DNA of 64,000 nucleotides, taken from positions 32,001 through 96,000 of the IMG/VR virus record IMGVR_UViG_3300037851_000141; one strand, 5' to 3'. The translations under genes and the position numbers were made by a program. Positions 33,314 through 60,015 of this stretch are shown piece by piece; position 1 is the first letter of the stretch; every line of letters begins with the position of its first letter. Under the pieces are notes generated by a model. That model did not search any database, had not been told where the DNA came from, and saw only the letters and a list, made by a program, of their open reading frames with translations. The DNA is from a virus. Lineage: Duplodnaviria; Caudoviricetes.

Positions 33314-36106
33314 TTATGGGGGCGAGGTTGAATACGTCCAAGTTGCGTTGGTTGAAGACAGGTCAAGATAACGATATTTGATGTTGTTGGTGTCTACTCT
33401 GTATGCTATGACAAAGTAGTTCCCTTTTTTGTATGTTATCGTATCGCCATCCGTACTTGGAACCGTTGGATGGGAACTTAGTGATGTTGTCCAAAGATGG
33501 TTTAATTCAATGCGAGATGAACAATACACAGCGCCAGATAGATTAGTATCACCGTAAACAGTCAGTTGATAGCTTGTGGCTGGGTCTGTGTTTATGCCTA
33601 CACGACCATCTGATAGTATCTTGAAACGCTCACTGCCATTTGTCTTACATACTATATATCCAGCGTCTACCGCTTCCAAGACAAGAGCGGCAGTTCCTCT
33701 GTGGGATAATACTGAATTAGAGTTAGCGCCGGCATTATCACGTAATATTCTTAGTCCATAGTCAGTATATGTATCATCACCATGGAAATCTATGAGGGCA
33801 TACCGATTGCCAGAGCCGAATGCGTTAACCTCAATCGCTGTTCCTGTAGACATATCCCCGTTAACTTCTAACGCATAGCTTGTTGCCTGACGATTTATGC
33901 CAACCTTCGCATTACCTACACGAAGAACCGGAGTTTCTTGATATGACAAGTTAACTTCGGTGCCGGCAACTTGGATTGGTGCCCAACTTCCAAGGTTAGT
34001 CGTGTGGCTACCAACTGTAACCATGTTGCTTGATGATGTGACATATCCGCAAATCAGTTTGTTAATCCCGTCAGCACCGACAACAAGGTGTGGCCCCCAC
34101 GCACCGGCAGCAGCCTGCAATACTGACCCGCCAATTGCAACAGGACCATCATTGGCAATTCGCATGCGATAACTGTTATTAGTATAGAAATCCAGCGGGT
34201 GATTAGTATTGACCGCAACGAAAGCAGACCCTATCGTGCTGTAGCAGCCGAAATCGGCCTGAATGGCGGAATTGGAAGAGTATGCCCTAAAGCGGATATT
34301 GTCGGCCCCGTCGGCATATACGAAACCGGCAACTTCTAAAGCATGCACAGTTGGTTGTCGGCCAATGCCAATTCGCGCATCACCAACGTACAAGACCACA
34401 GTTCCATCAGAGTCAGCCAAGGCAAAATCGGCAATCGCACCACGATATGGACTACGATAATATGTACCCCAATTAGCATCACGCGACCACACACCACCAG
34501 TAAAATCGCCAGCGGTGGCCTGAAGCATCGCTAGGCCACCACCAAGAGTTACTTTGGATACTGTATATCCACTACGAGTAGCTGTTAGAAAATAATCGGC
34601 TGCGTTATAAGCATCATTGAGACATCCAAAATACATTGATGTACTATTCGTCCACACTTGCCAAAGTTTCTCATTTGTTGCTGCCGTTGATTTACACCAT
34701 GTTACAGTTGGATCGCTATTTACGTCACACCCAATGCTGGTGCCAGTTGCGCTACTAGAACCATTTGTAGTTCCAGAGGCGAGGATACGACCACTTGCCT
34801 GTAATGCCTCGCTGCCTGTTGGGTCCATGAGGATTCCAACTTTATTATAGAATCTCACAACACTGGCAGAATCAATAGTCAATCCACCATCTTCATATCC
34901 ACCATTGTTTCCGGCATAACGAAGCAGTCTAAACATTCCGCTAATTTCATCTATCACCCAAGTCTTTGTATTTCCTATAATAGCAAGTTCGCCACCTTCA
35001 GTGTTATTATACTTATTTAATACTAAGCCCCGGCCACCAGCATTAGTTGGGAATACTTCGACAGCGCCAGAAACCTGTAAACGTTCACTACCAGTTGGAG
35101 CCATACCGATGCCAACTAATCCGGCAGATGATATGCTTATGCGATCTGTGAATGTCTGTGCGCCTATAGTCGTTGGGTTACTTGATTGTATGATAAAACC
35201 ATCCGGCCCCTTATTTAAGAGTCTTACTCCCCAATAATCTGAATTTACTCCAGCCCAACGTTGATATTCTATGTACGGATTGTCTGATGCTGAGAAGAAC
35301 CCAATCGTCGGAGAGCCAGCACCAGATAATGTTGCGTTTAATGTGCCATTTATTTGTAGGGAGGCGGTGCCGGATGGTGACATTCCAATTCCGACTTTCC
35401 CACCATACTTATTCAACGATAAACTATATTTGTTGCTTCCTGCCGATGTCTGAAATGCTTCTAATACGTACTCACCAGATGTATCACTATATCCTTGTAA
35501 AGTAGTATCATTTGATGTATCATGATCAATATACTGGCGACCTATTCTTACATTTGATCCAACTTGACTAATTGAAGAATTGCCTAACGCTGTACTAGAT
35601 GTGGCAACTGGAATATAGTTTGTGGTTAATCCACTTATACCTCCACCGCCAGTTATATTATCTATTTGAGATTGTAAATGACCTGTAATTTCAGCAACTT
35701 CACTCTTATATATGTCTGGAGTTGGTTTTCCGCTACTTACTACATTACCGGAGCTATCAGTTACAAGTATGTTTTGATCAGTAATATTAGTTAAAACGAA
35801 TGGAACATTTACTTTTACGCCAGTTGTATCTACAGTTAAGCCATTACTACTATCTGTTGTAATTTTTATGGCTGTTCCGTGTTGGATATTAACATCAGAA
35901 TCATCTATAGATACTTCTTTACCTAATCCAGCAGTCATTATAACGTGAGTATTATCAAGCTCAACTTTCGTTTGTCCTGCTGGTGGTAATGGATCTGCTG
36001 TATATTTAAGTGTTACCGATTCGCCTTGAATGGTATGAATAGCTGATGGACCACCTATTGTGCTATTTTGGCTAACTTTAAGTGTTTTTATCTTGGTTTC
36101 TGCCAT
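33314..36106 (-). CDS. Tail fibre-like protein (930 aa)
   Basis: Repeated GxVGIG/LxVxG fibre motifs; RYALIDFHGDDTYTDYGLRI module; Gly/Ser/Thr-rich. Confidence 0.8.
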   Translation of the reverse strand: MAETKIKTLKVSQNSTIGGPSAIHTIQGESVTLKYTADPLPPAGQTKVELDNTHVIMTAGLGKEVSIDDSDVNIQHGTAIKITTDSSNGLTVDTTGVKVNVPFVLTNITDQNILVTDSSGNVVSSGKPTPDIYKSEVAEITGHLQSQIDNITGGGGISGLTTNYIPVATSSTALGNSSISQVGSNVRIGRQYIDHDTSNDTTLQGYSDTSGEYVLEAFQTSAGSNKYSLSLNKYGGKVGIGMSPSGTASLQINGTLNATLSGAGSPTIGFFSASDNPYIEYQRWAGVNSDYWGVRLLNKGPDGFIIQSSNPTTIGAQTFTDRISISSAGLVGIGMAPTGSERLQVSGAVEVFPTNAGGRGLVLNKYNNTEGGELAIIGNTKTWVIDEISGMFRLLRYAGNNGGYEDGGLTIDSASVVRFYNKVGILMDPTGSEALQASGRILASGTTNGSSSATGTSIGCDVNSDPTVTWCKSTAATNEKLWQVWTNSTSMYFGCLNDAYNAADYFLTATRSGYTVSKVTLGGGLAMLQATAGDFTGGVWSRDANWGTYYRSPYRGAIADFALADSDGTVVLYVGDARIGIGRQPTVHALEVAGFVYADGADNIRFRAYSSNSAIQADFGCYSTIGSAFVAVNTNHPLDFYTNNSYRMRIANDGPVAIGGSVLQAAAGAWGPHLVVGADGINKLICGYVTSSSNMVTVGSHTTNLGSWAPIQVAGTEVNLSYQETPVLRVGNAKVGINRQATSYALEVNGDMSTGTAIEVNAFGSGNRYALIDFHGDDTYTDYGLRILRDNAGANSNSVLSHRGTAALVLEAVDAGYIVCKTNGSERFKILSDGRVGINTDPATSYQLTVYGDTNLSGAVYCSSRIELNHLWTTSLSSHPTVPSTDGDTITYKKGNYFVIAYRVDTNNIKYRYLDLSSTNATWTYSTSPP

Positions 36107-36109
36107 ATA

Positions 36110-37570
36110 TCACCATAAGAAGTAGTGGAGTTTATATCCAGTTGTTGAAGGTACATCTGATAATACGACATTAAATCCTGTTCCTGTAACATTATATATA
36201 TTCGGAATAAGTAATTGGCTGGAACTTGTGGGAACAACAACGGTAACAACGGGATGAGTGTTGAATCTTGATGCGTGTGTGACTGTATATACATCATCAG
36301 TTGTATTAAGATCAATAGCGCCATCAACAATTAAGTTCCATATTTGATTTTGTAGATAACCAGATACATCTTCGACTGTAGCGTTTGTTGCTAAATCAGT
36401 TACAGCTATTCCAGATGAAACTATACCACCAGAAATATTGGAGACTAATATATTTTGGTCATTTACGGAAGAAATAAAATTACCAGATACTTTAACATTA
36501 CCTTCAACTTCTAATCTCTGTGTTGCCGTGATGCTGCTACCAAGATGAATATATCCAGTAGATTGTTCAATTCTCATTATTCCAAAGGTATCAGTACTAT
36601 TGATCTGTACAGCAACAAGGTTACTCACTCCATCACCATCAGTTGAAATAGTCATTCCTTTTAAAGTTCCGCGATTAATAGCCAGAAGAACAGTCGGATC
36701 TGTGGTATCTGGTAAGTTACTATATATGGTATTATTAGTATATATTGATCCATTAACAGATAACGTGTAAGTTGGTGTTGTCGTAAAACCAATACCCACT
36801 TTTCCGTCTTCAATCCGCATCCACTCACTTGATGCTGTACTACCTGATGGTGTTCCGAGAAATGAATGTCTAGTACTCCTATCAGTACCGGACCAAGTAT
36901 TTTTAGCATATATCACATAACTTCCATTGGAGGAAGTTGTATAACTCGAACCATCATAACCATAACCGGCAATCGATATTAACGCTGATCCGCTTGATAC
37001 TGTTGTTGGTGATGATCTAGTACCATTTGCGCGTCTGCCACCGATAACCGTATTAGAATTCCAGGTATCTCCAATTAAACGTACAAACGCACTATTAGCA
37101 CCACACATTCTAAACGCTGTGGTTGTATCAAGTGTGTCATTTGGTATTGATTCAGATCCAAAATCCGCTCTTATCGCTCCAGAAACTTGAACTCTTTGTA
37201 CGCCATCAGGAGTTTTTGCTATTCCTATCTTATTATCTGTTTGTGTTATTAATGAGTTTTGTAAATTGTTTCCATCAAATTGTGGTAAATTGCCTGCTGT
37301 TAGATTTACGGTTGACGCATAACTTCCCGAAATACTAACTGTGAACGTATTTGTAGGAGATTCAACAATTTGTATTCCTGAGTCACCTTTAATATCTATA
37401 CTATTTATTTGTGATTGTAGTTGTCCAGAAATATTAGCAACATCTGATGAAGTTATACTCCATTGAGTTGAAACAATATTACCATTTGAATCAACAGTCA
37501 GCGGTTTACCTTGATCTGATATCAAATCTTTTATTTTTATACCAGAATCAGATAAGATTTTATTTATCAT
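36110..37570 (-). CDS. Fibre/appendage protein (486 aa)
   Basis: Carries the shared GxxGIQxVESPxNTFTVS linker and the C-terminal GAIDLNT...GYKLHY domain. Confidence 0.75.
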   Translation of the reverse strand: MINKILSDSGIKIKDLISDQGKPLTVDSNGNIVSTQWSITSSDVANISGQLQSQINSIDIKGDSGIQIVESPTNTFTVSISGSYASTVNLTAGNLPQFDGNNLQNSLITQTDNKIGIAKTPDGVQRVQVSGAIRADFGSESIPNDTLDTTTAFRMCGANSAFVRLIGDTWNSNTVIGGRRANGTRSSPTTVSSGSALISIAGYGYDGSSYTTSSNGSYVIYAKNTWSGTDRSTRHSFLGTPSGSTASSEWMRIEDGKVGIGFTTTPTYTLSVNGSIYTNNTIYSNLPDTTDPTVLLAINRGTLKGMTISTDGDGVSNLVAVQINSTDTFGIMRIEQSTGYIHLGSSITATQRLEVEGNVKVSGNFISSVNDQNILVSNISGGIVSSGIAVTDLATNATVEDVSGYLQNQIWNLIVDGAIDLNTTDDVYTVTHASRFNTHPVVTVVVPTSSSQLLIPNIYNVTGTGFNVVLSDVPSTTGYKLHYFLW

Positions 37571-38334
37571 GACAAATACTCCGCAGTTTTTTCAGAAATA
37601 AGAGTTGCCCAATCCGTATCAGATAATGCCGTATCCCAATATGCGTATTCTCTCCAATGTGTATGGTTGTATCGGGTGTTATTGGACTCTCCCATTCTAA
37701 TAGAAGTGCCAGTACCAATTACCGTAGCCGTAGTGCCGGACCCGCTAGTACCATTATACCATGACGACCACTCTTGGGTTGACTTCATCCTGTAAAATGT
37801 CAAGAAACTGACCAACCTAGCCGCTACGGTGTCTCCATTGAATAATAAGGTGTTAACTATTCTGGGACTTGTACGATAGTAAACAGTTGGAGAAATGAAT
37901 GCGCGTCGGCGATCAAATGCTCGAACGTTGCCATCCCAGCAGCCGTAGATGTCTATAGCGTCGGTGTGCGCGCAATCCTCGGTGCAACCTACAAGCATCA
38001 TCGTAAACCCGACCGACCCCATGGCCGTGCGTATAGGATCGCCAACACCACCGACCTTGTAAAACGCACCACGACCAACAGTTCCGGTACCGTTTCTGCC
38101 CATATTAACACCAGTCTTGCCAAATACCAAACCTGTCTCAACAACCGGAGCATCACCCAAATGGCCAAGGGTAAAGCCAGCTTGCGTGCCATATGATGGC
38201 CAGCGACGAGGAACAGCGTCATTGACTGTGGAAGTCTGATCCTCTGCATGGTAATGAATACTTGCGGTCTGTATTATAGGAACCGTGTTGACAGTCCCTC
38301 TAAGAAGTGGTAGAATTCCCATTCCTAACATCAT
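37567..38334 (-). CDS. Putative lectin-like (ConA/LamG-type) virion protein (~255 aa)
   Basis: Start moved to the ATGA overlap at 38334. C-terminal IRMGE...HWREYAYWDTALSDTD resembles LamG-type ends; GC-rich. Confidence 0.55.
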   Translation of the reverse strand: MMLGMGILPLLRGTVNTVPIIQTASIHYHAEDQTSTVNDAVPRRWPSYGTQAGFTLGHLGDAPVVETGLVFGKTGVNMGRNGTGTVGRGAFYKVGGVGDPIRTAMGSVGFTMMLVGCTEDCAHTDAIDIYGCWDGNVRAFDRRRAFISPTVYYRTSPRIVNTLLFNGDTVAARLVSFLTFYRMKSTQEWSSWYNGTSGSGTTATVIGTGTSIRMGESNNTRYNHTHWREYAYWDTALSDTDWATLISEKTAEYLS

Positions 38335-40079
38335 GGCTGACCCTTCCAATCTACAAGAACATTGGAATCATTAGAACCAAGACTTTCCATCGTAACAACC
38401 ATCCATTTGCTCGCGGTTGTTGCCGATGGGGCCGCAGTCATCCAAGACCAACCATTAGGCCAATATACCGTTCTACTTACACCATTATCCCGTAATCTCA
38501 AACCATATACATTCCCAGGATTTAGATAAGATGTTGCGAATGTACAATCCGTATCTAATCCATCCAACACACCAATAGTTTCATTTGCTCTTAAATTTAG
38601 AGTAACATTTGAACTACTACTTAATGTTTGAAATGCTGTACCATCATAGCCATTTAAGATTCCAACAATATAACTTATTTTATAACCAGATACAGGAGGA
38701 ATTGCTGATAATATGACGTTAAAGCCAGTTGATGTTATATTATGGATGTTAGCTAAAATAAGATCGCTTCCAGAAGTAGGAACAACGACATTTATCATAG
38801 GGTGTGGATTTTCTATAGCGTCATGGGTAACGGTATATAAATTGGTTGAAGTGTTAAGATTTATTTCTCCAAGTATTATATGTGTTGCGCCAGTTATTGT
38901 ATTTATTTGAGTTTGTAATATATTAACTTGATTATTTGTATATGAAACTGATTGGTTGTAGGCATTAGCAGAAGCAGATTGTACATAGGATGTTGAAGCA
39001 TAATCTCCGGTAATAGAAACCATCCATACATTACTTGGAGATTCAACAACCCTTGCTCCACTTACACCTATAACATTGAATGAATTTATTTGAGTTTGTA
39101 AATTGCCAGAAACCGAAGCAACATCAACAGACTTTATATATTCAGTTGACGTATCGAACCTATTTGCTCCACTATTCCAAACAGCAACTCCACCATTTAT
39201 AGGCGAATTCTCTCTGGTTGCTACTGGTTGTAAGTCATTTATTTGACCGACCTTAAACGTATCTGTCAGTTCATCAAATATAATAGCATAATCTGTTAAT
39301 GAACCTCTATCAACAAGCAATCCCGCCGAAATATTAGTAACACCAGCACCAACCTCACCAGCATTAATGTAAATAATATTATCTTTTGCTGAAATTGATT
39401 CTGTATTTACAATAAACTGCGTGCCAGATACTATTAAATCTCCATTGACTGTTACATTATCTGTAAATACTTTATCACCACTAAATTGAGAACTTAATGA
39501 TGTTATTGTAGTAATTTGATTTTGTAATGATCCGGTTAAACTTTCTACTTGAGAAACTGTAGCATAATCGCCAGAAACACTAACTGTAAACGTATCATTA
39601 GGAGATTCTACAACTGATATCCCTGAACCACCAAGAATAATAGTAGTATCTACAGGGGAAATACCATTGATTTGTTCCTGTAAATAACCAGATATATCAG
39701 AAACTTCGGCACGGAATATATCTGGAGCCGGTTGAGACTCTAGATTGTCTAAACGTAAATCAAATACTGCTGTTATATTTTCTACTTCGGATCTTAATGT
39801 AGCATCACCGAAACTGCCAGAGACACTTATTGTAAATGTATTGGTTGGAGCTTCTATAACTTGAATTCCGTATCCACCATTTACTTCTATATTTGTACCT
39901 GAAATGTTATCTATCTCGTTTTGTAAATATGCTGATATAGCTGCTGTTTCAGATTTTGTAATGTAATTATTGAAATTCTCGCTAGATGATATTATATTAC
40001 CTTGAGAATCTATAGTTAACAGATTTCCGGTGTACCCTTGAAGATTGTTTATCTGTATATCATCTGTGCGTATCTTCAT
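38331..40079 (-). CDS. Fibre/appendage protein (582 aa)
   Basis: Three shared linkers; KDNIIYINAGE...AGLLVDRG segment; C-terminal VYWPNGWSW...APSAT domain. Confidence 0.75.
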   Translation of the reverse strand: MKIRTDDIQINNLQGYTGNLLTIDSQGNIISSSENFNNYITKSETAAISAYLQNEIDNISGTNIEVNGGYGIQVIEAPTNTFTISVSGSFGDATLRSEVENITAVFDLRLDNLESQPAPDIFRAEVSDISGYLQEQINGISPVDTTIILGGSGISVVESPNDTFTVSVSGDYATVSQVESLTGSLQNQITTITSLSSQFSGDKVFTDNVTVNGDLIVSGTQFIVNTESISAKDNIIYINAGEVGAGVTNISAGLLVDRGSLTDYAIIFDELTDTFKVGQINDLQPVATRENSPINGGVAVWNSGANRFDTSTEYIKSVDVASVSGNLQTQINSFNVIGVSGARVVESPSNVWMVSITGDYASTSYVQSASANAYNQSVSYTNNQVNILQTQINTITGATHIILGEINLNTSTNLYTVTHDAIENPHPMINVVVPTSGSDLILANIHNITSTGFNVILSAIPPVSGYKISYIVGILNGYDGTAFQTLSSSSNVTLNLRANETIGVLDGLDTDCTFATSYLNPGNVYGLRLRDNGVSRTVYWPNGWSWMTAAPSATTASKWMVVTMESLGSNDSNVLVDWKGQP

Positions 40080-40088
40080 TTAGTTCCC

Positions 40089-42446: not shown

Positions 42447-42477
42447 TTAAGCTTCTCCGAAAGAGTATTATATTGTA

Positions 42478-45400
42478 TCATGTTTTCTTAACCTTTAATG
42501 TCAATCGTAGATTAGAACAATTTGATGCTGATTTAAGATAATATCCAACAACATCATTTCTGACAATAGTTGTATTAGTCCAGCCAGATAAGTCTGTGTT
42601 TCTTACATATTGCTGATTAGTTAGGATTGGATTGCCCGTTCCCGAAATCTTATTTGCCACTGTTGGAATATTATCATTAACTTTCCAGACTTCAATTTCG
42701 GCAGACGCACCAGATGTATTAGCCAACATGGTGTATGCCATTATAGTGCCATTATAACTTATTGTGTTATATCCTATAGATCCTGATATTGGAGTTGACC
42801 CACCACCATCAAATACAACACCAGTATCAACCAATAGAACATCAGCATCCGAATCTATATTAGCATCGGTTACTGAGGATAAACTGCCACCAGCACCACC
42901 AGATATTGTAATAGTTTGTCCTGATTGAATTAATTGAATGTTTGGGCCTGCTGATAAAACAACTGCACCAGATAATCCATTTATAGTTGTTCCATTTCCA
43001 CCAGTTATATTGTCTATTTGGAATTGTAGATATCCACTTATTTCAGCAGTTTCAACATCAGTTACGTATCTTAATGGTAATATATTGCTAACCCAAGTTT
43101 CATCTTGTATTGAGTTATTGACACTGACCAGATTATTTCTATTAGTTAATTGGCCTGAATAATCTGGTCCGACACTTGTAAACCAGAATTTAGAATTTTG
43201 TAATGTTATTGAAGTTGACGTTTCTACATTTATAAATCTCTTACTATTGTGTGAATCGACCCCTTGAATTATAAACTCTTTGGAATAACATCCGTATAAG
43301 CCAACACCATCACAAGAAGAAATATTATATGCTATACCTGGAGTGTCTGGCATTATAGCAGCACGATATGTTGTTGCTTCGGTTCCACAACCATTTAATG
43401 TAATTGCTTTACTGGCTGAGAAGTTGTATCCATAAGAACAACTATCAGCAGAACAACCTTGGAATGAACAATATGATGATGATTGAATGAGATATCCACA
43501 ATAGATGGCACCATTCGCATAGCAACTTAACCAAGAACAACCTGTAGCTGTTGATACTCTCCAAGCATTACCACCAATATCTTCGGTACGGCAATTCTTC
43601 CAACAACTTGATACTGGTATACTGATTCTATATCCATCTCCAGCCATTTGATATAATTTAATATTTTCATATAAGTTATTAAGGGCATTATTTGTTGCGT
43701 CTACTCTGATACCACTACTATTTGTCGCATCTATACCAGCACCACGAATACCAATATCTCTTATTATTAGATAGTGTATGTCATTACCAACTCCACCATC
43801 TAACATATATTGAGTTCCGCCACCATTCCAAGTAGCACCTACACCATAAACATTTGTTCTTATTTCAGATGCTTCGGCACCAACACCCATTATTTCTATA
43901 TAACTGTATATTGTTAATGGTTGACTAATTAAGTATATACCTTCTGGGAAGAATACTACACCACCACTAACTGCCGCAGTATTTATGGCATTTTGTATTG
44001 ATGTTGTATCATCGCTAGAATTATCACCTTTAGCTCCAAAATCCTTAACATTATAGAATATCTTAGTTTGTAATTGTCCAGATATTGTTGATACTTGTGT
44101 TGTTGTAGCATAATTACCGGAGACACTAACCGTAAATGTATTAGCTGGAGACTCAACAACTTGTATTCCGTTACCACCTAATACTGTAGAACCCCCTCCT
44201 GGTTGAATGTTATCTATCTCATATTGTAAGTAACCGGAAATATTAGATACTTCTGTGCGATAAATGTCTGGAACTGATGCGCCGCTACTAACTATTCTTC
44301 CTATTGAGTCTGATACTAATATCTTACCATCAACAATAGGAGTCGTGAGTGAACCAGATGTACTTATGTTTCCGGTTGCGCTTATTATTTCGTTTACGTA
44401 TAATCTTTTACCTACCGCAACACCACCAGCAACAACTAATGCGCCTGAAGTTGAATTCGTTGACACAGTAGTGGCAGGAATATATACTTCGGTGTGATTT
44501 GTTGATTTGCCAAGAATAATTTGTTTTGACTTGGTTGATGTTGCTTGATATCCTATTGCTACACTTGTATCGAATCCATTAGTCGTTGCCTCTCGACCGA
44601 TAACAACTGAATTTGATCCGCCAGCACTAGCATCTTTTCCAAGGGCAACACCACCTATGCCTGCCGAAGTTGCTCTACCTACGATAACACAGTCTGTGGC
44701 TGTATCTGATGGTCTACCTATGATTACGGAGTTTGTTGTTGATCCAAAACTACCGCCATTAGATAGTATGACCGCATTTGTAGCGTTATTTGCTCCTAAA
44801 TCTACATTATTTCCTACCAATAGAATATTATAAGATGTACTTGTTTTGTTTAATGTTGATCCAATAAATACATCTGGTGTCGTGGAACCAGCGCAAGTTA
44901 TTGTTATGTTTCTACCGAGTAATAGTCCTCCCAGATTATCTTTTACATCATTCCACGTATTATTATTGCCTATATTAATACCGTTACGAGTAGGAGAATA
45001 TTCGATTCTTGTTGCTCCACTGGTTCCAGCATACGCAACCAATGCTCCGCTAATCTGTAGCGTTTCACTTCCCGAAGGTATCAAGCCAATTCCGACTTTT
45101 CTTGTGGATTGAATTATATTTGAGTCGGAGAGTTTTCCTCCACTAACAACTGGTATATACGTTTCGGTTAATCCATTTGATCCAATATAATTACCAGAGA
45201 CGCTAACCGTAAAAGTATTAGCTGGAGACTCAACAACTTGTATTCCAGTTCCACCTAATACTGTTGATCCTACTCCCGGTTGAATGTTATCTATCTCATA
45301 TTGTAGATAAGCAGACACCGCAGCAGTTTCGGTTCTTAGAGTATAATCTGATAATGGAATAGCATTTATCTGTTGTTGTAATGACCCGGTTAAACTAGAT

Positions 45401-48400
45401 ACTTGAGAAACCGTAGCATAATCACCAGAAACACTTACTATAAATGTATCGTTTGGAGATTCTATGACTTGTATACCATTTCCACCTAAAACAACTGTAG
45501 TATCAACTGGACTTATACCGTTTATCTGATTCTGTAAATATCCAGATATATCAGAAACTTCGGTTCTTCCAATATAATCATTTGCTTGTGCTTGTGTTAA
45601 GTGATAGTATTCTCCTAATGTTCCGCCTTGTAAATTAGCAAGAGTATTATGATCGGTACTTCCTCCAGATATAGAAGCAGAAATAGTTATTTGGTTACTT
45701 CCATTATCAGTTATTTGTATATTTGAGCCTTGAACTAATGTAAGAGTTCCAGATAAATTATTTAACTTATTTACATATGTTGCTGATTCTATAACATCCA
45801 ACCTTCCATCTAATGACCCACTCAAAGTAGCAACAGTAGATGATCCGATGTAATCAGCATATTGCGCAGATGTAAGATGGAAGTATTCGCCAGCAGTTCC
45901 ACCCTGTAATCCACTTAAATTATTATGTGTGTTTGTACTTGACGTTGTGATATTTACACTTTGATTTTTAATATTAACTACATCAACGATTCTTGCATCG
46001 CCATTTGTTGCTGAGAATGATAAAGAATATTGATGGGTTATACGATATAATGCGATAGTTTCAGAAAATGGAAAATTACCTAAAGATAATGATGATAATG
46101 ACTCAGATTGCGCTAAGGCCAATGATGTGTAAATGGTCTGCCCAGGAATAATAAAAACTCCACCAGTACCTATGGAATTCGTAACTAATACATAATAATT
46201 TACCCAGCGGTTATTGGTTGTTATATCTGTTAATTGCCAAGTTGCACCAGTATATTGATTATATCTAATGTTTCCGGCGTTGATAAAATATGGATATGCT
46301 TCGGTTGAACTCCAAGTCCAGTCGCCAGAACCACCACTACGATATAATACAGTGTAAGGTCCACCACTAACTACACCAGACACAACATTTATTATATCCT
46401 CATCAAAAAAGTCTCCAGTAGATATTGAATATTTGTTATCTGCTGGTATATCTGAATTTAAGTTATAACTGCCTATAGTTAATCCACTCTTATATTGAGA
46501 ACCGCGAGTAAAATGTAAATAATTGTGGGTCACGGCATCCATTATTGTTCCGTGACGTTCTTCCAACAAGAAATACTTAGACAGCGTTGCATCAAGATAA
46601 ACATAAGCAATAGGTATAGTGGTTAGAAGATCCCAAAGTGTAGTCGAATATGTAAGAATACCGCTTAAATTATAATAGAAATAATGAGAACCTGATGTTG
46701 CTGTTATAACCTTTTGTTGTACACCAGTTTTACGTATTTTAGATCCACGACTATATATGTTATGCCCGCCGGAAATAGTAAATGTGAGTGAACCTAAATC
46801 AAAACCGATAACTGAGTCTGTTCTGTTCTCAAATCCAGTAGGTTCAAGTAATCCAGCAGAAATAGCGTCTGAAACTGAGGTTAATTGATTTTGTAAATAA
46901 GCAGATATCGCAGCAGATTCGGTTCTTAGTGTGTATAAGTTGAACTTGTTATTGATGAAACCAGATACAGCAGCAGTTTCAGTACGGAGTGTATATGAGG
47001 ATAAAGGGATAGCGTTAATTTGTTGTTGTAATGATCCTGTTAAACTTGATACTTGTGATACTGTGGCGTAATTACCAGAAACACTAACTGTAAATGTATT
47101 TGTAGGAGATTCAACAACTTGGATTCCTGAGCCGCCGCGAACATCAATACTATTTATTTGATTTTGTAAATAACCTGATACAGCAGAAGTTTCGGTTCTA
47201 GTTGTATACGAATTGAATTTATTATTTAAGAACCCTGAAATAGCGGCAGTTTCAACTCTAGTAGTATAAGCTGAAAGTGGTATAGTGTTTATTTGATTTT
47301 GTAAATAACCAGATACAGCAGATGTTTCGGTTCTTAATGTATAGCTTGATAGTGGGATATTATTAATTTGTTGTTGTAAATTACCTGAGATAGAACTTAC
47401 TTGAGAAACCGTAGCGTAATCACCAGAAACAGAAACAGTAAATATATCATTTGGAGATTCTATAACTTGAATACCATTACCACCTAATATTGTTGTTTTA
47501 TCACTTGGATCTATAGCATTTATTTGATTTTGTAAATAACCAGAAATATCAGAGGTTTCAGTTTTGGTAATGTAAGTTGATTCAACATTTCCAAGTCTTA
47601 TGTCGATTGGATTGGTTATATCAGTAATATTTGACGTAATTGCTATATAACCATCTGTCTCTGGAAACATTAACGTTATATCGCCAGACTGACCAGGATT
47701 TCCGGCAATAGTTATTTCTTCGCCAGCAACATCCAACGTCGATAAATCAAATTTTAACAATTTATCGGGTTGAGAATCATAATATATAGCAAAATCAGAA
47801 TCACTAAATCTATTGGTCGTTATTATAGAATTTCCGCCAGATTGACTATCTCCAAATTTACCGGCATGTATTATTTCGTAATCTAGTGGATTGTTAAAAT
47901 TCGATATTCCTTCTTTAACTAATATCCAACCTCTAAAAGAAGCATCATAAAAATTCTCAGCAGGATTTTCGAAAGCTTCAGTTCTTATTCCGGCTAAAGC
48001 CAATTCTTTTGTAAGGTATGTGTTTTGTCCATAGAATATATACGTTCTTCCAGATTGACCAAATAAATATATTCTCTGGATAGTCCAATTATTACTAGAA
48101 ACTGATTGTAGTGTTCCAGAACCATCATCATAACTATTTGGTGAAATTAATGTTTGTAATGTTGAATATATTACTCGGCCTTCTGTTGCTGAACGATATA
48201 CATAGAAAAATGATACGGGATTTGACTCAGCTTGTATAGATAAATGTGGATTTAATATTGTGTTTATTGTATTGGAATTTAATCTATAAATCGAACCAGA
48301 TGATTTCTTTAATGTCAAATCGGATGATGGATTTCCCGGTTCGTATATATTTCCTTCTATATTTATTGACCCTATTGATGACGCCAAATCTGCATATTGG

Positions 48401-49416
48401 TTATATAAATCAACTGGATATGGTTGAATATTTGACACAAAGTTAACTGTACCATCTCTATGTATTACTTTACCGAGTTGAATTAAGTTTCTAAAGTTTT
48501 CGGGTGTTGGAGATTCTGGTATAAATTGAGGAGAGCCAGATAAATCCATATAAACCATAGAAAAATCAGACGATGATATGGTTGGAACGGTTACAGTTTG
48601 TGTCATCCAAATTACTATACGTGATGTAACTGAATTTCCAGAATCTAATGAACTAGGATCTACAATTTGGCCGACTCCACCGGAAATAGTAATTGTTGTT
48701 GGACTTGCTACAGATAACTGCCCGCCTTGGATTATACCAGTAGATGAATGTGATAGAGCGGTTTGTCTAGCAAAATATGCGTTTCTTGCTGCACCATCGA
48801 TACCAAGTTTGACATTAGTAGGATATTGAACATTATAAAAGTACAGTGGATTTGATGGAGAATAATCGATATCTTGTGCGCTTAATCCAGTAACAATAGT
48901 ATTTGTATATGATATCGATTGATTGTATGAATTAGCTGACGCCGAATCAACATAACTTATTAAAGCATAAGAACCCGATACACTAACTGTAAAAGAATCA
49001 TTCGGAGACTCGACAACAGATATGCCGTTTCCACCAAATATTATAGTTTTATCACTTGGGTCTATGGCATTTATTTGATCTTGTAAATAACCGGATACAG
49101 CAGAGGTTTCAGTCCTTAGTGTGTAATTTGATAAAGGTATATTGTTTATTTCATTTTGTATATAAGAACTAATTCCTTGAACTTCTGACTTTGTTATATA
49201 AGATGATTCTATTACATCAATCCTATTATCTAATCCAGCACTTATATTTTGTAATTCTGTCCTTAATGAATCTAAATTTCCGCTTGATGCTATTGTGGTT
49301 ATATCTACTGAACTTGATATGAATTTTCCAGTTGAATCAAGGATAACTATTTCATTATTATTTCCGGCTAATGTATCTACCACTAGACCTTTTTTTATAT
49401 GCCATTCCCCGGCCAT
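42478..49416 (-). CDS. Giant modular fibre protein with YadA-like repeats and a pectate-lyase-like beta-helix (~2312 aa)
   Basis: NVKDFGAKGDNSSDDTTSIQNAINTAAVSGGVVFFPEGIYLIS (Pectate_lyase_3 start); VALGKDASAGGSNSVVIG repeats; six linkers; start at 49416 (AAGGGG RBS). Confidence 0.85.
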   Translation of the reverse strand: MAGEWHIKKGLVVDTLAGNNNEIVILDSTGKFISSSVDITTIASSGNLDSLRTELQNISAGLDNRIDVIESSYITKSEVQGISSYIQNEINNIPLSNYTLRTETSAVSGYLQDQINAIDPSDKTIIFGGNGISVVESPNDSFTVSVSGSYALISYVDSASANSYNQSISYTNTIVTGLSAQDIDYSPSNPLYFYNVQYPTNVKLGIDGAARNAYFARQTALSHSSTGIIQGGQLSVASPTTITISGGVGQIVDPSSLDSGNSVTSRIVIWMTQTVTVPTISSSDFSMVYMDLSGSPQFIPESPTPENFRNLIQLGKVIHRDGTVNFVSNIQPYPVDLYNQYADLASSIGSINIEGNIYEPGNPSSDLTLKKSSGSIYRLNSNTINTILNPHLSIQAESNPVSFFYVYRSATEGRVIYSTLQTLISPNSYDDGSGTLQSVSSNNWTIQRIYLFGQSGRTYIFYGQNTYLTKELALAGIRTEAFENPAENFYDASFRGWILVKEGISNFNNPLDYEIIHAGKFGDSQSGGNSIITTNRFSDSDFAIYYDSQPDKLLKFDLSTLDVAGEEITIAGNPGQSGDITLMFPETDGYIAITSNITDITNPIDIRLGNVESTYITKTETSDISGYLQNQINAIDPSDKTTILGGNGIQVIESPNDIFTVSVSGDYATVSQVSSISGNLQQQINNIPLSSYTLRTETSAVSGYLQNQINTIPLSAYTTRVETAAISGFLNNKFNSYTTRTETSAVSGYLQNQINSIDVRGGSGIQVVESPTNTFTVSVSGNYATVSQVSSLTGSLQQQINAIPLSSYTLRTETAAVSGFINNKFNLYTLRTESAAISAYLQNQLTSVSDAISAGLLEPTGFENRTDSVIGFDLGSLTFTISGGHNIYSRGSKIRKTGVQQKVITATSGSHYFYYNLSGILTYSTTLWDLLTTIPIAYVYLDATLSKYFLLEERHGTIMDAVTHNYLHFTRGSQYKSGLTIGSYNLNSDIPADNKYSISTGDFFDEDIINVVSGVVSGGPYTVLYRSGGSGDWTWSSTEAYPYFINAGNIRYNQYTGATWQLTDITTNNRWVNYYVLVTNSIGTGGVFIIPGQTIYTSLALAQSESLSSLSLGNFPFSETIALYRITHQYSLSFSATNGDARIVDVVNIKNQSVNITTSSTNTHNNLSGLQGGTAGEYFHLTSAQYADYIGSSTVATLSGSLDGRLDVIESATYVNKLNNLSGTLTLVQGSNIQITDNGSNQITISASISGGSTDHNTLANLQGGTLGEYYHLTQAQANDYIGRTEVSDISGYLQNQINGISPVDTTVVLGGNGIQVIESPNDTFIVSVSGDYATVSQVSSLTGSLQQQINAIPLSDYTLRTETAAVSAYLQYEIDNIQPGVGSTVLGGTGIQVVESPANTFTVSVSGNYIGSNGLTETYIPVVSGGKLSDSNIIQSTRKVGIGLIPSGSETLQISGALVAYAGTSGATRIEYSPTRNGINIGNNNTWNDVKDNLGGLLLGRNITITCAGSTTPDVFIGSTLNKTSTSYNILLVGNNVDLGANNATNAVILSNGGSFGSTTNSVIIGRPSDTATDCVIVGRATSAGIGGVALGKDASAGGSNSVVIGREATTNGFDTSVAIGYQATSTKSKQIILGKSTNHTEVYIPATTVSTNSTSGALVVAGGVAVGKRLYVNEIISATGNISTSGSLTTPIVDGKILVSDSIGRIVSSGASVPDIYRTEVSNISGYLQYEIDNIQPGGGSTVLGGNGIQVVESPANTFTVSVSGNYATTTQVSTISGQLQTKIFYNVKDFGAKGDNSSDDTTSIQNAINTAAVSGGVVFFPEGIYLISQPLTIYSYIEIMGVGAEASEIRTNVYGVGATWNGGGTQYMLDGGVGNDIHYLIIRDIGIRGAGIDATNSSGIRVDATNNALNNLYENIKLYQMAGDGYRISIPVSSCWKNCRTEDIGGNAWRVSTATGCSWLSCYANGAIYCGYLIQSSSYCSFQGCSADSCSYGYNFSASKAITLNGCGTEATTYRAAIMPDTPGIAYNISSCDGVGLYGCYSKEFIIQGVDSHNSKRFINVETSTSITLQNSKFWFTSVGPDYSGQLTNRNNLVSVNNSIQDETWVSNILPLRYVTDVETAEISGYLQFQIDNITGGNGTTINGLSGAVVLSAGPNIQLIQSGQTITISGGAGGSLSSVTDANIDSDADVLLVDTGVVFDGGGSTPISGSIGYNTISYNGTIMAYTMLANTSGASAEIEVWKVNDNIPTVANKISGTGNPILTNQQYVRNTDLSGWTNTTIVRNDVVGYYLKSASNCSNLRLTLKVKKT
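44112..45305. repeat. 117-bp direct repeat pair (44112-44228 and 45189-45305)
   Basis: Hand alignment gives 106/117 identical with a 32-bp perfect core; spacing 1077 bp, which is in frame. Confidence 0.9.
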
Positions 49417-49487
49417 ATTTTTATCCCCTTCCAAACGATCCAGAGATTCGTCGTCCAACGGTTAAATTGGATTAGGTTGTACGCCCA

Positions 49488-49495
49488 TATTTATA
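49488..49495 (-). promoter_or_regulatory. T4-type late promoter TATAAATA
   Basis: Perfect match upstream of the giant fibre gene. Confidence 0.8.
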
Positions 49496-49500
49496 TCATT

Positions 49501-52236
49501 TCAGGGAGATACACGAATCGCTTTTACATTCCAAGACCCAGCCATAGACAAAGCAACTAATCTTAAATATCCGGCATTAATATCAGATATAAGATCAAGA
49601 TTACTTGTGTCTCCTATGCTTGGAGTTGATGATTCAGCATATTCTACAGTACTACCATCTGTTATAGCTAATATATTACTTGTACGAAGACCAGTAGAGC
49701 CAGAAACAGAAACCGTCCAGTTAGCAGAATTCGTAGCACTAGCAGCAACAGAATCAATTACGGAAGTTGATATTACATCATTTACATAACTTCTTGGTAA
49801 TAGATTGTTTACATAATTTATTGATTGAGTGTATGAATTGGCTGATGTTGAATTTACATAACTTGTTAAAGCGTAATCCGAAGATACGGCCACGGTAAAT
49901 GTATTTGTTGGAGATTCTATTACTTGAATACCATTTCCACCAAGAACATTAACTGAGTTTATTTGATCTTGTAAATAACCACTAATATTAGAAACGGCCG
50001 AGATTGTGCTAAATGTATCTAATATTGAAATAGATTTGCCACCATCAATAATTCTTCCATCACCATTCCAAGTTAAGAAATTCCCAGATGGTCCAGCAGT
50101 TAAAGTTGATACATAAACGTTAGGTGTTTTTATTCCTCTATATTCGGATGTTGGATCTAATGGATATTCTGAGTTGGTAAGAAGATTATATATAGCTACA
50201 TTAGTATTTCTCATATTTGTGCCGCGAGTCATACCACTTGGCGGCGGAATAATTGAACTAGCAGTATTATTATATTTAACCGTAACCGTGTGAACACCGG
50301 GAGTAAGACCAAACCAAGTATAACTAAAATGAGACTTAGCTGATGAAGGTGCGGTTGTGTCAGTTAACCACGTTCTTGCTTGTGATATAGACACTCCAGT
50401 ATTATCAACTCTAGCATACTGAGCAATTCCGCTGCCAGAAATTCTAAACTCAAAACCACCATATCTTAACTCTTCAGAAGCAGCAAATCTGTTCCAAGTG
50501 GCAACAACATCACAATCTAATAAAAATTCGCCTGTATTTGGAATATATACGTCAAATAGTATATCAGCTTGGACGCCACCGCCAGTAGTATAAACACCAA
50601 CTCCACGTTGCGAAGAATCTCCTTTTATTCCACAGTTATAATATCCTTGAGTAAATGGAGAGTCTGGTGGTTCAACTCTTAAATAATCTCTATCTTCTCC
50701 AGTCAATGATCCACTACTTAATGTCCAATTCCTATAGTTTTTAGAATCACGCAAACGTCTTCCAAATGGACCTAGTATATTAGAAAAATTATAATATCCC
50801 GGTGTAGATGTTAATGTTGGACCAAATAAAGTTAATATATTCTCATAATCCCGCATTGATTCTCTGGTAGTTGTTGATGAATAATTACATTTATCAAATT
50901 TTAAGTTGCCATATTGGTCATTGTATATAACATAATCGTCAAACTTTGATTGTCCGCTTATTGGAGAGTTTATAACAGTACCATAAAACACTTGGCGAGT
51001 TTTTATAACATTTTCATAAGATTGCGAGGCTCTAGCGTGAATTTCATCAGCTAAAACATTTGATTCATAAACTATAGTATCATTAGTTACCGCACCCAAA
51101 AGAGTTGAATTATAATAATAAATATAATTGTTATTTACAGAACCTTGATCTGTCTGAGCTACACTTAAGGCATCATCAACCACAAGCTCATCTGATATAT
51201 AAGCAGAGTTATTAACAGTTAGTAAACCATCAGTTGTAACATTACCATTCCCATAAACAGTTAGTCCATTTGATCCACCAGACGAATTTATTACAAAACT
51301 TCTAGCATCATAAAGATTGATTATATTTCCGTTGTTATACGCATTTTGTAAAGTTACCAATCCACCAGATAAAGTTTGTAATTCAGTGAAAAGAACATAC
51401 TCGCTACTTACGCTAACAGTATATACATTTGATATTGATTCTAATACTTCAATTCCATTTCCGCCAAGTACGATAGTAGATTCTTGTTCTATACTATTAA
51501 TCTGGTTTTGTAAATAAGCACTAACATCAGCGGTTTCAGTACGAGTTGTATATGCTGATAATGGAACAGCATTTATTTGATTTTGTAAATAAGCACTAAC
51601 ATCAGCGGTTTCAGTTCTTGTAGTATAATTTATTTCAATTGACGTAATTCTATCAGTTAAATCGCCTGTTATATTAACCATTTCTGTTCTAAGATATGGA
51701 TCGCCCACTTCAGCAAACTCAAGCCCACTTTGATCCATTTTAACTAATACAGCCTTACCCTCACTACCAACATAAGAATTGGGCGAGTCAGTTAACTGTA
51801 AGAAATTAGATACACCACCAGATAAAACGATAGCATCAATCTGATATTGTAAATAACCAGAAATATCAGACGATTCAGCTTCAGTGATATACGTTTCTTC
51901 AAGATTTGTTATACGTTCATCAAGAGCAGCCGTAGCATTATCAACATAAGTTCTATAAACAATGTTAGAAACTGCTATATTACTACTTACTATTTTTCCC
52001 GAACTATCTGTGGCTAAAAGTTCATTAGCATTAATATAATTTACATTAAGGTCTGAAAATGTCTTTTTACCATCTATAATCTGTGTAACATTTGATTTAG
52101 AAACATAATCTCCATTTAATATTTCAAGATTATCGGCAATATACTTAAAATTGTCTATTATAAGCTCACCACCATCTCTATTGGGTGGCGGGTCTGTTAT
52201 TTTTAAGCCTTTATACAATTCAATATTCGTTGCCAT
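49501..52236 (-). CDS. Fibre/appendage protein (911 aa)
   Basis: Shared linkers and SAYLQNQIN heptads; N-terminus paralogous to that of the 535-aa gene. Confidence 0.75.
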   Translation of the reverse strand: MATNIELYKGLKITDPPPNRDGGELIIDNFKYIADNLEILNGDYVSKSNVTQIIDGKKTFSDLNVNYINANELLATDSSGKIVSSNIAVSNIVYRTYVDNATAALDERITNLEETYITEAESSDISGYLQYQIDAIVLSGGVSNFLQLTDSPNSYVGSEGKAVLVKMDQSGLEFAEVGDPYLRTEMVNITGDLTDRITSIEINYTTRTETADVSAYLQNQINAVPLSAYTTRTETADVSAYLQNQINSIEQESTIVLGGNGIEVLESISNVYTVSVSSEYVLFTELQTLSGGLVTLQNAYNNGNIINLYDARSFVINSSGGSNGLTVYGNGNVTTDGLLTVNNSAYISDELVVDDALSVAQTDQGSVNNNYIYYYNSTLLGAVTNDTIVYESNVLADEIHARASQSYENVIKTRQVFYGTVINSPISGQSKFDDYVIYNDQYGNLKFDKCNYSSTTTRESMRDYENILTLFGPTLTSTPGYYNFSNILGPFGRRLRDSKNYRNWTLSSGSLTGEDRDYLRVEPPDSPFTQGYYNCGIKGDSSQRGVGVYTTGGGVQADILFDVYIPNTGEFLLDCDVVATWNRFAASEELRYGGFEFRISGSGIAQYARVDNTGVSISQARTWLTDTTAPSSAKSHFSYTWFGLTPGVHTVTVKYNNTASSIIPPPSGMTRGTNMRNTNVAIYNLLTNSEYPLDPTSEYRGIKTPNVYVSTLTAGPSGNFLTWNGDGRIIDGGKSISILDTFSTISAVSNISGYLQDQINSVNVLGGNGIQVIESPTNTFTVAVSSDYALTSYVNSTSANSYTQSINYVNNLLPRSYVNDVISTSVIDSVAASATNSANWTVSVSGSTGLRTSNILAITDGSTVEYAESSTPSIGDTSNLDLISDINAGYLRLVALSMAGSWNVKAIRVSP

Positions 52237-52262
52237 GCTCTCTCTTTAGAATAGATCACCAT

Positions 52263-52270
52263 TATTTATA
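52263..52270 (-). promoter_or_regulatory. T4-type late promoter TATAAATA
   Basis: Perfect match. Confidence 0.8.
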
Positions 52271-52293
52271 TTTTAATGAGACGAATAATTGAA

Positions 52294-52779: not shown

Positions 52780-52804
52780 AGATTAGAATATGTCCCTTAG
52801 CCAT

Positions 52805-52812
52805 TATTTATA
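52805..52812 (-). promoter_or_regulatory. T4-type late promoter TATAAATA
   Basis: Perfect match just downstream of the terminator. Confidence 0.8.
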
Positions 52813-52830
52813 TATTATATGTGGTATTAT

Positions 52831-52871
52831 AAAAAAATAAAGAGCCAATAAACTATTAATATTGGCTCTTT
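52831..52871 (-). terminator. Rho-independent terminator
   Basis: 12-bp stem AAAGAGCCAATA/TATTGGCTCTTT, followed by a T-tract on the minus strand. Confidence 0.85.
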
Positions 52872-52896
52872 ACTTCAATATAAGAAAATAACTATA

Positions 52897-54249: not shown

Positions 54250-54272
54250 GTATTATTCCTTTTATATATTCT

Positions 54273-54280
54273 TATTTATA
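54273..54280 (-). promoter_or_regulatory. T4-type late promoter TATAAATA
   Basis: Perfect match. Confidence 0.8.
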
Positions 54281-54283
54281 TCA

Positions 54284-58357: not shown

Positions 58358-58404
58358 TAAATCTCCTCAGACCATTAATCATTATTATACATCAATATCA
58401 TCCA

Positions 58405-58412
58405 TATTTATA
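58405..58412 (-). promoter_or_regulatory. T4-type late promoter TATAAATA
   Basis: Perfect match overlapping the upstream stop codon. Confidence 0.8.
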
Positions 58413-60015
58413 CGATTGTTATTCCGATTAGATTATCATTTCCGTCATATGTAAATGATTTAGATTGATATCGTCCAGAACCAGAAATACTTACTAATAA
58501 ACCATTTATGTTATATGAAAAAGATTTAGCACCATATTCATCAACTAAATATATTAAATTATTGCTTCCATCATATGTTAATGTTTTATCTCGACCGTGA
58601 ACCTGAACTACAACTGGATCTGGATAATTACCATCAAGATCGCCGCCGGCAGCACCAGATATTCCGTTAATAGATGATATATTCTTATTTATCCATTTTA
58701 TTCCATCATAGAAAAGAACTTCGCCTGAAACTGGAGTAGTTAAAACAACATCAATAAGACCATCAAGAGTAGACGACCCGCCACCAGTTATTCCAGTAAT
58801 TTGATCTTGTAAATATCCACTTATACCAGATACTTCGGATTCTGTTATATACGTTGCTTCAATAATATCTAATCTATTATCTAAACTTGATGAAATTGAC
58901 GCAACATCAACATAAGTTATATAGTTTCCAGACACACTGACTGTAAAAGTTTGAGTTGGAGATTGAACTACACTAATACCACTTCCACCACGAACAACAG
59001 TATTTTCACTTGTTATTCCGTTTATTCTATTATTGAGATATCCACTAACAGCAGCAGTTTCAGTACGAAGAGTATATGCTGATAAAGGTATCGTATTTAT
59101 CTGGTTTTGTAAATATGCGCTAATACCTGATACTGTTGAGTTTGTAGCATAATTTCCAGTAATATTAAGCGTAAATGTGTTTGTTGGTGATTCAATAACA
59201 CTAATGCCACTTCCACCAATTATATTATCAACTTTATTGTTTATTTGACTCTGTAAATACGCACTAATATCAGCAACTTGAGATGATGATGTATATGTTG
59301 TTGAATCTGTAGCAAGAATATAGTTAAGTTTATATCCACTAACCGCCGGTACGCTTGATAAAGAAACCTTGAAACTCGTATTACCTATTTCAGATATTCC
59401 AGTTACAAAAAGCGTATCTCCACTAATCGGAATCACAAGAGAAACAACCGGAACAGAATTGTCTAAATAACTATGCGTAATTGTATAAGTTTGATCAATT
59501 GTATTTAAGTCAATAGATCCGTTAAGAGAAAATGCTAAAGTCGAGTTTATCCATTTACTTGTCGATGAATCATATACCAAAAATTGACCATCTACAGGCG
59601 AAGAAATGTTAACATCATTCAGATCCACTAAATTTGTCGTTAACTCACCGGAAACAGAAATCGTATATGTATTGTCTGGAGACTCAACTATAGAAACATT
59701 AGACCCAGCTATTAATGTTATGTTCGAGCCGCCACCACTTGTTAAATCCGAAACCGAAATACCACTATCAATTATCTTTCCACAAGTATCTACAGTTAAT
59801 ACATTACCAGCAGAAATACCAGTGACATAAAGATTATTGAATATCTTATCACCTTCAATAATCTGAGTAACATCTGAAGACGAAACATAAGTATTAGATA
59901 TTTCTTTTACATTTTTAGCCAATACCTTAAAATTATAGGTATTTATCTTATCTTTTGGATCAGTTGGGGGAGTGCCTGAAAGCTTTATCCCCTTATATGG
60001 CTTTATTCCTGACAT
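58408..60015 (-). CDS. Fibre/appendage protein (535 aa)
   Basis: Three linkers; LxDLxDVxI.SP..GQxLxY motifs; C-terminal TLTYDGSNNL/SFTYDGNDNL repeats. Confidence 0.75.
   Translation of the reverse strand: MSGIKPYKGIKLSGTPPTDPKDKINTYNFKVLAKNVKEISNTYVSSSDVTQIIEGDKIFNNLYVTGISAGNVLTVDTCGKIIDSGISVSDLTSGGGSNITLIAGSNVSIVESPDNTYTISVSGELTTNLVDLNDVNISSPVDGQFLVYDSSTSKWINSTLAFSLNGSIDLNTIDQTYTITHSYLDNSVPVVSLVIPISGDTLFVTGISEIGNTSFKVSLSSVPAVSGYKLNYILATDSTTYTSSSQVADISAYLQSQINNKVDNIIGGSGISVIESPTNTFTLNITGNYATNSTVSGISAYLQNQINTIPLSAYTLRTETAAVSGYLNNRINGITSENTVVRGGSGISVVQSPTQTFTVSVSGNYITYVDVASISSSLDNRLDIIEATYITESEVSGISGYLQDQITGITGGGSSTLDGLIDVVLTTPVSGEVLFYDGIKWINKNISSINGISGAAGGDLDGNYPDPVVVQVHGRDKTLTYDGSNNLIYLVDEYGAKSFSYNINGLLVSISGSGRYQSKSFTYDGNDNLIGITIV

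Follow-up and report, generated by a model that had tools for sequence, protein, structure and literature searches.

Fibre gene cluster between capsid and neck genes

The window analysed here (64,000 nt; G000:C1:32001-96000 of the IMG/VR virus record IMGVR_UViG_3300037851_000141) contains a cluster of fibre-type genes in which one short peptide module recurs between otherwise unrelated domains. The module consists of a 24-amino-acid (aa) element, H, and a 27-aa beta-hairpin element, B, and is an undescribed, lineage-restricted connector family; an H followed by a B is written HB below. At least seven fibre genes of this genome bear H or B. The record is a 331.8-kb, T4-like virus genome from freshwater with a CheckV completeness of 92%. 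Its major capsid protein is of the T4 type (Pfam Gp23, E 1.5e-96) and has a best identity of only ~36% in the phage collection, where the record had no nucleotide match.

Every gene between 29.6 and 64 kb of the window lies on the minus strand. In the order of transcription, the capsid gene is followed by genes for a 588-aa zinc-ribbon protein and a 173-aa protein and then by the open reading frames (ORFs) of the fibre cluster, with lengths of 535, 1357, 450, 161, 911, 2326, 785, 582, 260, 486, and 930 aa. The cluster ends at a gp13-like neck gene (phrog_211, head-tail adaptor, E 2.8e-17), immediately upstream of which the 930-aa gene is located. From this gene order, running from the capsid gene to the gp13-like neck gene, it follows that the cluster occupies the place of wac, gp12, and the baseplate and fibre genes of T4. 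Searches against Pfam and PHROGs returned almost no matches for the cluster proteins, the exceptions being a beta-helix in the 2326-codon gene (the giant fibre gene) and a related small protein that matched a tail-fibre PHROG. The module-bearing genes and the zinc-ribbon gene are as follows:

42478..49458, minus strand: giant fibre gene, 2326 codons counted from TTG
49501..52236, minus strand: 911-aa fibre gene, two HB modules (51394-51558 and 49867-50019) and solitary H elements
38331..40079, minus strand: 582-aa fibre gene, HB modules at 39807-39971, 39558-39725, and 38994-39146, and a 72-aa domain (aa 401-472)
58408..60015, minus strand: 535-aa fibre gene, hairpin-only copy at 59644-59703, HB modules at 59143-59301 and 58915-59082
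36110..37570, minus strand: 486-aa fibre gene, HB module at 37313-37465, one solitary H, and a C-terminal 72-aa domain
33314..36106, minus strand: 930-aa gene, helical half only (H at aa 129-152, window 35651-35722, 27 bits)
G000:C1:229735-230892, minus strand: orphan 385-aa fibre-like gene, ~150 kb from the main cluster and outside the window
60639-62405, minus strand: 588-aa protein with treble-clef and zinc-ribbon domains (DUF4379, E 2.4e-9), directly downstream of the capsid gene

The orphan 385-aa gene contains one full H-B module (G000:C1:230569-230748) and two solitary H elements, and its product matches the tail-fibre PHROG phrog_9729 (E 5e-8). The giant ORF is listed from the TTG at 49458; the first ATG lies 14 codons downstream, at 49416, and is the likelier start. 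The zinc-ribbon protein is conserved, at 37-53% identity, in four of the five relatives. GC content at third codon positions (GC3) is 0.44 in the 260-aa gene (window 37567-38349), 0.31 in the 930-aa gene, 0.42 in the capsid gene, and 0.17-0.23 in the other fibre genes; the raised values of the 260-aa and 930-aa genes point either to a foreign origin or to expression-linked codon bias.

Copies, anatomy, and rarity of the connector

A hidden Markov model (HMM) built from eight regex-seeded copies detected 15 copies of the module in five genes (six in the giant gene, three each in the 582-aa and 535-aa genes, two in the 911-aa gene, and one in the 486-aa gene), exactly reproducing the count in a preliminary description of this DNA. 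The per-copy E-values, ranging from 5e-8 to 1.6e-29, exclude a chance origin of these matches. All six copies in the giant protein (aa 122, 639, 761, 1305, 1382, and 1741) are full-length, and further copies were located at aa 49, 130, and 324 of the 582-aa, aa 239 and 752 of the 911-aa, and aa 48 of the 486-aa gene product. The 535-aa protein has full modules at aa 251 and 324, and its third copy (aa 100-124) consists of the hairpin only. A search of the whole record with a 14-copy alignment added a 16th full copy, in the orphan 385-aa gene. The heptad part that had also been reported for the 930-aa gene was found there, limited to the helical half. All module copies and solitary H elements are in frame and on one strand.

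Within H, a serine, a leucine, and an isoleucine are invariant and spaced S-x-x-L-x-x-x-I, with additional hydrophobic residues at i-4 and i+3; expressed on this core, the hydrophobic positions are i, i+4, i+8, and i+11. B has the pattern Gly-Gly...Glu-Ser-Pro...Ser-Gly-x-Tyr. The consensus has Ser-Gly-Tyr-Leu-Gln in the helix and Glu-Ser-Pro in the hairpin. There are ~40 copies of H, many of them solitary or in tandem, with ~25 standing apart from the full modules; the tandem arrays consist of 23-25-aa units with proline-containing breaks between them. B is preceded by H in 14 of 15 copies, the exception being the hairpin-only copy of the 535-aa gene. Aligned relatives either have or lack B between one and the same pair of H elements, which makes B an optional insert.

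The module had no match in Pfam, PHROGs, or the PDB. Out of 1.84 billion representative proteins, all scanned with HMMER, only 252 carried it at E <= 1e-3. Among the matches listed, those beyond the window's own proteins have the same beads-on-a-string layout, and the module-bearing proteins whose source was looked up were mostly metagenomic.

An AlphaFold2 (AF2) monomer model of one module copy (predicted local distance difference test, pLDDT, 59.6) placed a helix at residues 6-21, with a pLDDT of about 60-70, and a beta-hairpin at residues 37-41 and 47-51. Based on this model and on the hydrophobic spacing of the S-x-x-L-x-x-x-I core, H is probably a short amphipathic helix, which we read as a trimeric coiled-coil segment, and B a putative hairpin collar. 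A Foldseek search of the module model against the PDB returned nothing at E <= 0.001, neither the module nor the 911-, 930-, and 582-aa proteins found a useful match by sequence in the PDB, and the ESM Atlas returned only unnamed clusters, below 0.9.

The giant fibre and its cargo domains

From its N-terminus, the giant protein is composed of H-H-HB, cargo1 (460 aa), HB-H-H-H-HB-H-H-H, and cargo2 (434 aa), followed by HB-H-HB, cargo3 (304 aa), HB-H, cargo4 (330 aa), a further H, and the C-terminal 174 aa. Its six full modules are:

48961..49131, minus strand: HB module, giant aa 110-166
47410..47580, minus strand: HB module, giant aa 627-683
47062..47214, minus strand: HB module, giant aa 749-799
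45412..45582, minus strand: HB module, giant aa 1293-1349; its H is the last block common with a protein of the relative G002 before a 416-aa extra stretch
45184..45351, minus strand: HB module, giant aa 1370-1425; upstream arm of a 118-nt repeat
44104..44271, minus strand: HB module, giant aa 1730-1785; downstream arm of the 118-nt repeat

BLASTP showed no relationship of the large cargos to one another, in agreement with the preliminary view that the linkers separate unrelated domains. Cargo4 is a pectate-lyase-type beta-helix (PF12708, E 1.2e-15; PDB 7chu, E 7.9e-10), confirming the fold assigned to it earlier. For cargo3, a YadA-like nature is plausible judging from its sequence: its candidate YadA-head-type repeats scored 16.7 bits against PF05658 (YadA_head), below the cut-off of 25, and P0155, a 42% identical relative, carries PF05658. 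P0155 is free of H and B, so the fold family of cargo3 also exists apart from the connector. The giant protein had no Pfam match to YadA_anchor, the C-terminal beta-barrel membrane anchor. In a single-linkage clustering of cargo segments, the C-terminal 174 aa grouped with the C-termini of other H/B fibre proteins; the segments fell into one 239-member cluster via residual short common motifs, and pairwise block maps were used instead.

Some domains are common to several fibres of the cluster. A 72-aa domain, 44-53% identical among the 486-, 582-, and 535-aa proteins, is C-terminal in the first and internal in the other two, and occurs twice in one protein of the relative G001:

36113-36331: 72-aa domain, 486-aa gene (aa 414-486)
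38664-38879: 72-aa domain, 582-aa gene (aa 401-472)
59314-59526: 72-aa domain, 535-aa gene (aa 164-234)

Over their N-terminal 90 aa (window 51961-52230 and 59743-60012, respectively), the 911-aa and the 535-aa protein share 41% identity (E 7e-20), and a weaker N-terminal match connects the giant and the 911-aa protein. This sequence similarity suggests that the common N-terminal 90 aa may be a virion-docking domain or site for different fibres.

GC3 is uniform across the segments of the giant gene (0.15-0.22); thus, no cargo looks recently imported. Additionally, a block of the type His-Asn-Thr-Leu...Asn-Leu-Gln-Gly-Gly...Tyr-Tyr-His-Leu-Thr was observed at giant aa 1241-1315 (window 45514-45738), directly before an H. 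It is 63% identical in the G002 giant protein and has a degenerate repeat near aa 1159-1223.

Mosaic arrangement among relatives

For comparison we used five IMG/VR records whose capsid proteins are 80-87% identical to that of the window. When metagenomes were scanned with the conserved 450-aa neighbour, identities did not exceed 67%, and the fibre genes were not conserved. The capsid-to-neck interval is hyperplastic: it holds between 0 and 11 fibre-type genes among the relatives, with eleven in the window (33314-62405). In G003 (97% complete) it spans ~2.5 kb with three small ORFs only, in G004 it contains a single 4507-aa ORF without H or B, and in G002 it contains ORFs of 971, 454, 159, and 2584 aa.

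The comparative evidence shows whole domains entering, leaving, and moving at the connector. One case involves aa 1241-1315 and 1732-2148 of the giant protein, whose counterparts in the 2584-aa protein of G002 (aa 103-178 and 159-541, respectively; 63% identity in both cases) lie next to each other. These two stretches of the G002 protein overlap in one H. Because the blocks are contiguous in G002 through that single H, the window has 416 extra residues (B-H-HB-cargo3-H) between two H copies; relative to G002 it also has the B of the downstream module. Cargo2 was found in six contexts. It is internal in the window's giant protein and lies at aa 38-457 of a 1162-aa and aa 591-948 of a 1123-aa protein in G001 (57% and 64% identity). 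The remaining three positions are aa 902-1378 in P0028, aa 1299-1723 in P0035, and aa 524-929 in G002. In the last of these the cargo2-like domain (37% identity) follows the beta-helix, whereas in the window cargo2 precedes it by ~900 residues. Furthermore, aa 115-345 of the 582-aa protein match an H-to-H stretch of a G001 protein without the B.

We also compared the positions of block ends with random placement, using eight long high-scoring segment pairs (HSPs) that were no less than 45% identical and covered 100 or more non-linker residues. Of 28 internal homology ends, 19 fall within 10 aa of an H or B, compared with 7.1 +/- 2.2 expected by random placement, and none of 2000 trials reached 19. 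Several of the ends that miss H/B coincide with a degenerate H near aa 1202-1223. Thus, module order is not conserved among relatives and the ends of shared blocks lie at linkers, as the preliminary description had anticipated. The shared blocks are 37-64% identical in protein, and the exchanges are therefore old.

Linker DNA and recombination machinery

Over 69 codons, the linker copies are 46-76% identical in DNA (mean 58%); for the linker core the range is 51-88% (mean 65%), with an inter-gene maximum of 78%. The best inter-gene windows of 100 nt reach 82-84%. In the median pair of copies the longest exact run is 10 nt, and in no pair does it exceed 32 nt. Identical residues share the same codon at a frequency of 0.53, compared with 0.44 expected from the codon usage of the cluster, and a column-by-column test of the linkers found no contiguous DNA box conserved beyond the needs of the protein; DNA conservation beyond the protein requirement was rejected on these grounds. 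Linker similarity is 0.56 within the genome and 0.50 between genomes, and several copies have their nearest neighbour in another genome. This excludes concerted evolution of the linkers within the genome and speaks against any ongoing homogenisation.

One pair of copies stands apart. A 118-nt direct repeat (window 44111-44228 and 45188-45305) is identical at 107 of 118 positions (91%); its arms are 1077 bp (359 codons) apart, in frame, and bracket cargo3. Codon identity in this pair is 31/43 vs 19.9 expected (p = 6e-4), and the pair is a good recombination substrate. The earlier statement that the copies stay similar in DNA therefore holds weakly: it applies to the 118-nt pair and mostly fails elsewhere, the core mean being 65% with synonymous sites near saturation. 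The idea that linkers double as homology blocks is supported by this in-frame, cargo-bracketing pair, most copies being too diverged in DNA to serve efficiently as such today.

The genome encodes a UvsX/RecA-like protein and UvsY, which would carry out the exchange. According to a passage in PMC2839356 (citing Singer 1982), recombination of the T4 type needs homology patches of <50 bp only.

Origin of the mosaic

The explanation that we favour, with a probability of roughly two in three, is that H-B is a structural connector of trimeric fibres which passively provides frame-safe recombination sites as a by-product of architecture and selection. H would hold the three chains in register, and B would add an optional beta-hairpin layer after it. 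Trimeric domains flanked by H may thereby stay in register, allowing unrelated binding or enzymatic domains to be strung along one fibre. Conservation of the peptide would keep the coding DNA partly alike, in patches of 10-32 identical bases and in the 118-nt stretch at 91%, and the UvsX-like/UvsY general recombination may occasionally cross over in these patches. Crossovers in linker DNA would be in frame by construction. Through them, entire cargo cassettes would be gained, lost, duplicated, or relocated, both inside a fibre gene and from one fibre gene to another, and selection would retain the foldable products, giving a mosaic among relatives over evolutionary time. Most events are ancient, as indicated by the low DNA identity, the saturated synonymous sites, and the divergence of the shared blocks.

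Several points weigh against this explanation. DNA identity is 55-75% for the majority of linker pairs, and their synonymous sites are close to saturation, so that homologous exchange should be rare now, and the values of 0.56 within and 0.50 between genomes argue against ongoing gene conversion. The AF2 monomer reached a pLDDT of 59.6, with no structural match by fold or sequence. HSP ends are not mapped crossovers, and any recombination combined with selection next to conserved linkers would give the same pattern. The nearest relatives reach only ~87% capsid identity.

In the likeliest rival, H-B is purely a structural shaft repeat without a role in recombination, conserved solely for the sake of the fibre, the mosaic being produced by any recombination and selection keeping junctions at domain boundaries. 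Block ends at linkers are also expected from selection for foldable junctions. Near-saturated synonymous sites (0.53 vs 0.44), the lack of a DNA box conserved beyond the protein's needs, the 10-nt median of exact matches, and the age of the shared cargo blocks (37-64% aa identity) all fit this rival. Two observations do not: at the G002 junction exactly one hybrid-register H corresponds to two in the window, as repeat-mediated exchange would leave it, and the cargo3 cassette sits between 91% identical in-frame repeats with an excess of shared codons (p = 6e-4). We consider the rival unlikely, if by no means negligible.

It is considerably more doubtful that the connector is a universal trimer adaptor of this lineage which is in active use to this day, with UvsX-mediated crossovers between linkers still ongoing in natural populations and continually yielding in-frame fibre variants at measurable frequency. 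If this were so, the 118-nt pair at 91% and the inter-gene pairs at 82-84% would be the first candidates, and the genome could be regarded as a standing combinatorial library, a view that we hold to be just as improbable.

The system is not a programmed, high-frequency switching device. Dedicated cassette switching by a specific recombinase, invertase, or retroelement could be suspected from the many copies of one linker and from a resolvase-family gene, the only such match in the genome:

G000:C1:240559-240939, minus strand: resolvase-family serine recombinase (PF00239, E 4e-18; 212-aa ORF)

This gene lies ~10 kb from the orphan fibre gene but ~150 kb from the cluster, and no inverted fibre segments were seen with it. 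The 27-kb cluster lacks inverted repeats (none of 30 nt or more in window 33000-60200), all linker copies are direct and co-oriented, and they are too diverged to serve as recognition sites, with no conserved DNA core. Reverse transcriptase is absent as well, with no RVT_1 match in the 332-kb record. Dedicated switching is accordingly very improbable. A diversity-generating retroelement was rejected for want of an RVT_1 match, and invertase switching of the Gin/Cin/Min or shufflon kind because of the missing inverted repeats and the distance of the resolvase gene. Of the preliminary proposal that shuffling proceeds without a recombinase or a reverse transcriptase, the latter part stands; the former has to be qualified, as UvsX/RecA-like and UvsY proteins are encoded.

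Least credible of all is an assembly artefact, in which metagenomic reads mis-joined at linkers created the giant multi-cargo gene: the genome is metagenome-assembled and the region repeat-rich, but the longest exact repeat (32 nt) falls short of the final k-mer lengths of commonly used assemblers, the ORF is unbroken over 2326 codons, relatives have comparable giant genes (2584 and 4507 aa), and GC3 is uniform across giant segments (0.15-0.22). The artefact was rejected accordingly.

Comparison with known systems

The principle, recombination at conserved motifs, is already known; the connector family is undescribed and the scale of its use unusual. In an account given in PMC3157838 of Tetart et al. 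(1998, J Mol Biol 282:543), recombination between the conserved His boxes of T-even gp37 and the glycine-rich motifs of gp38 swaps specificity. As in gp37/gp38, where short conserved motifs alternate with hypervariable segments and exchanges occur in or near the motifs by general recombination without a dedicated recombinase, the motifs described here alternate with unrelated segments, and the ends of exchanged blocks in relatives lie at or near them. Unlike the T-even GxHxH or glycine-rich motifs, however, the motif here is a 24-aa helix plus a 27-aa hairpin; it bounds whole domains of 300-460 aa instead of small loops, and it is present in at least seven genes, with 16 or more copies in one genome. 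The phage described here is uncultured, and its mosaic is known from sequence comparison. The PeSL elements likewise move modules through short repeats and T4 recombination (<50-bp patches), but they are intergenic promoter/stem-loop elements that move whole genes, while the repeats here are coding and in frame and move protein domains.

T4 fibritin (gpwac) is a segmented trimeric coiled coil with swapped C-terminal modules, exchanged mostly in the distant past (PMC3797505). The resemblance extends to putative short helical segments with loop breaks, to genes directly upstream of a gp13-like neck gene, and to mostly ancient module replacement. None of the genes had a match to Fibritin_C or another fibritin Pfam family that would indicate the fibritin N-terminal domain or foldon. 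In contrast to fibritin, large globular or enzymatic domains lie between the helical segments here, and there is the additional beta-hairpin element. In the adhesion devices of Streptococcus thermophilus and lactococcal siphophages, collagen-like linkers flank carbohydrate-binding modules (PMC7533335). There, too, long tail proteins have insertable binding modules that are set apart by repetitive trimeric linkers, although the linker is collagen-like and the phages are siphoviral and infect another host clade.

The connector also invites comparison with bacterial proteins. Trimeric autotransporter adhesins such as YadA and BadA are head-neck-stalk proteins assembled from a small dictionary of connectors. 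They share with the giant fibre a beads-on-a-string layout, short connectors between coiled-coil domains (putative in the fibre) and beta domains, and, in one cargo, candidate YadA-head-type repeats. The differences are that the fibre is a phage virion protein without a membrane anchor domain, that its connector sequence is unrelated to the adhesin neck, and that Pfam YadA_head remains below the cut-off in the window protein.

Fibres set the host range of tailed phages, and the acquisition of new binding domains is central to their ecology and engineering. The locus is an unusually clean natural example of this, with one undescribed connector of 50-70 aa used at least 16 times in seven genes. 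Should the connector turn out to be a self-registering trimer adaptor, chimeric fibres could be built with it as a ready-made part, and it would also mark fibre genes in the many uncultured jumbo T4-like phages to which Pfam and PHROGs are blind.

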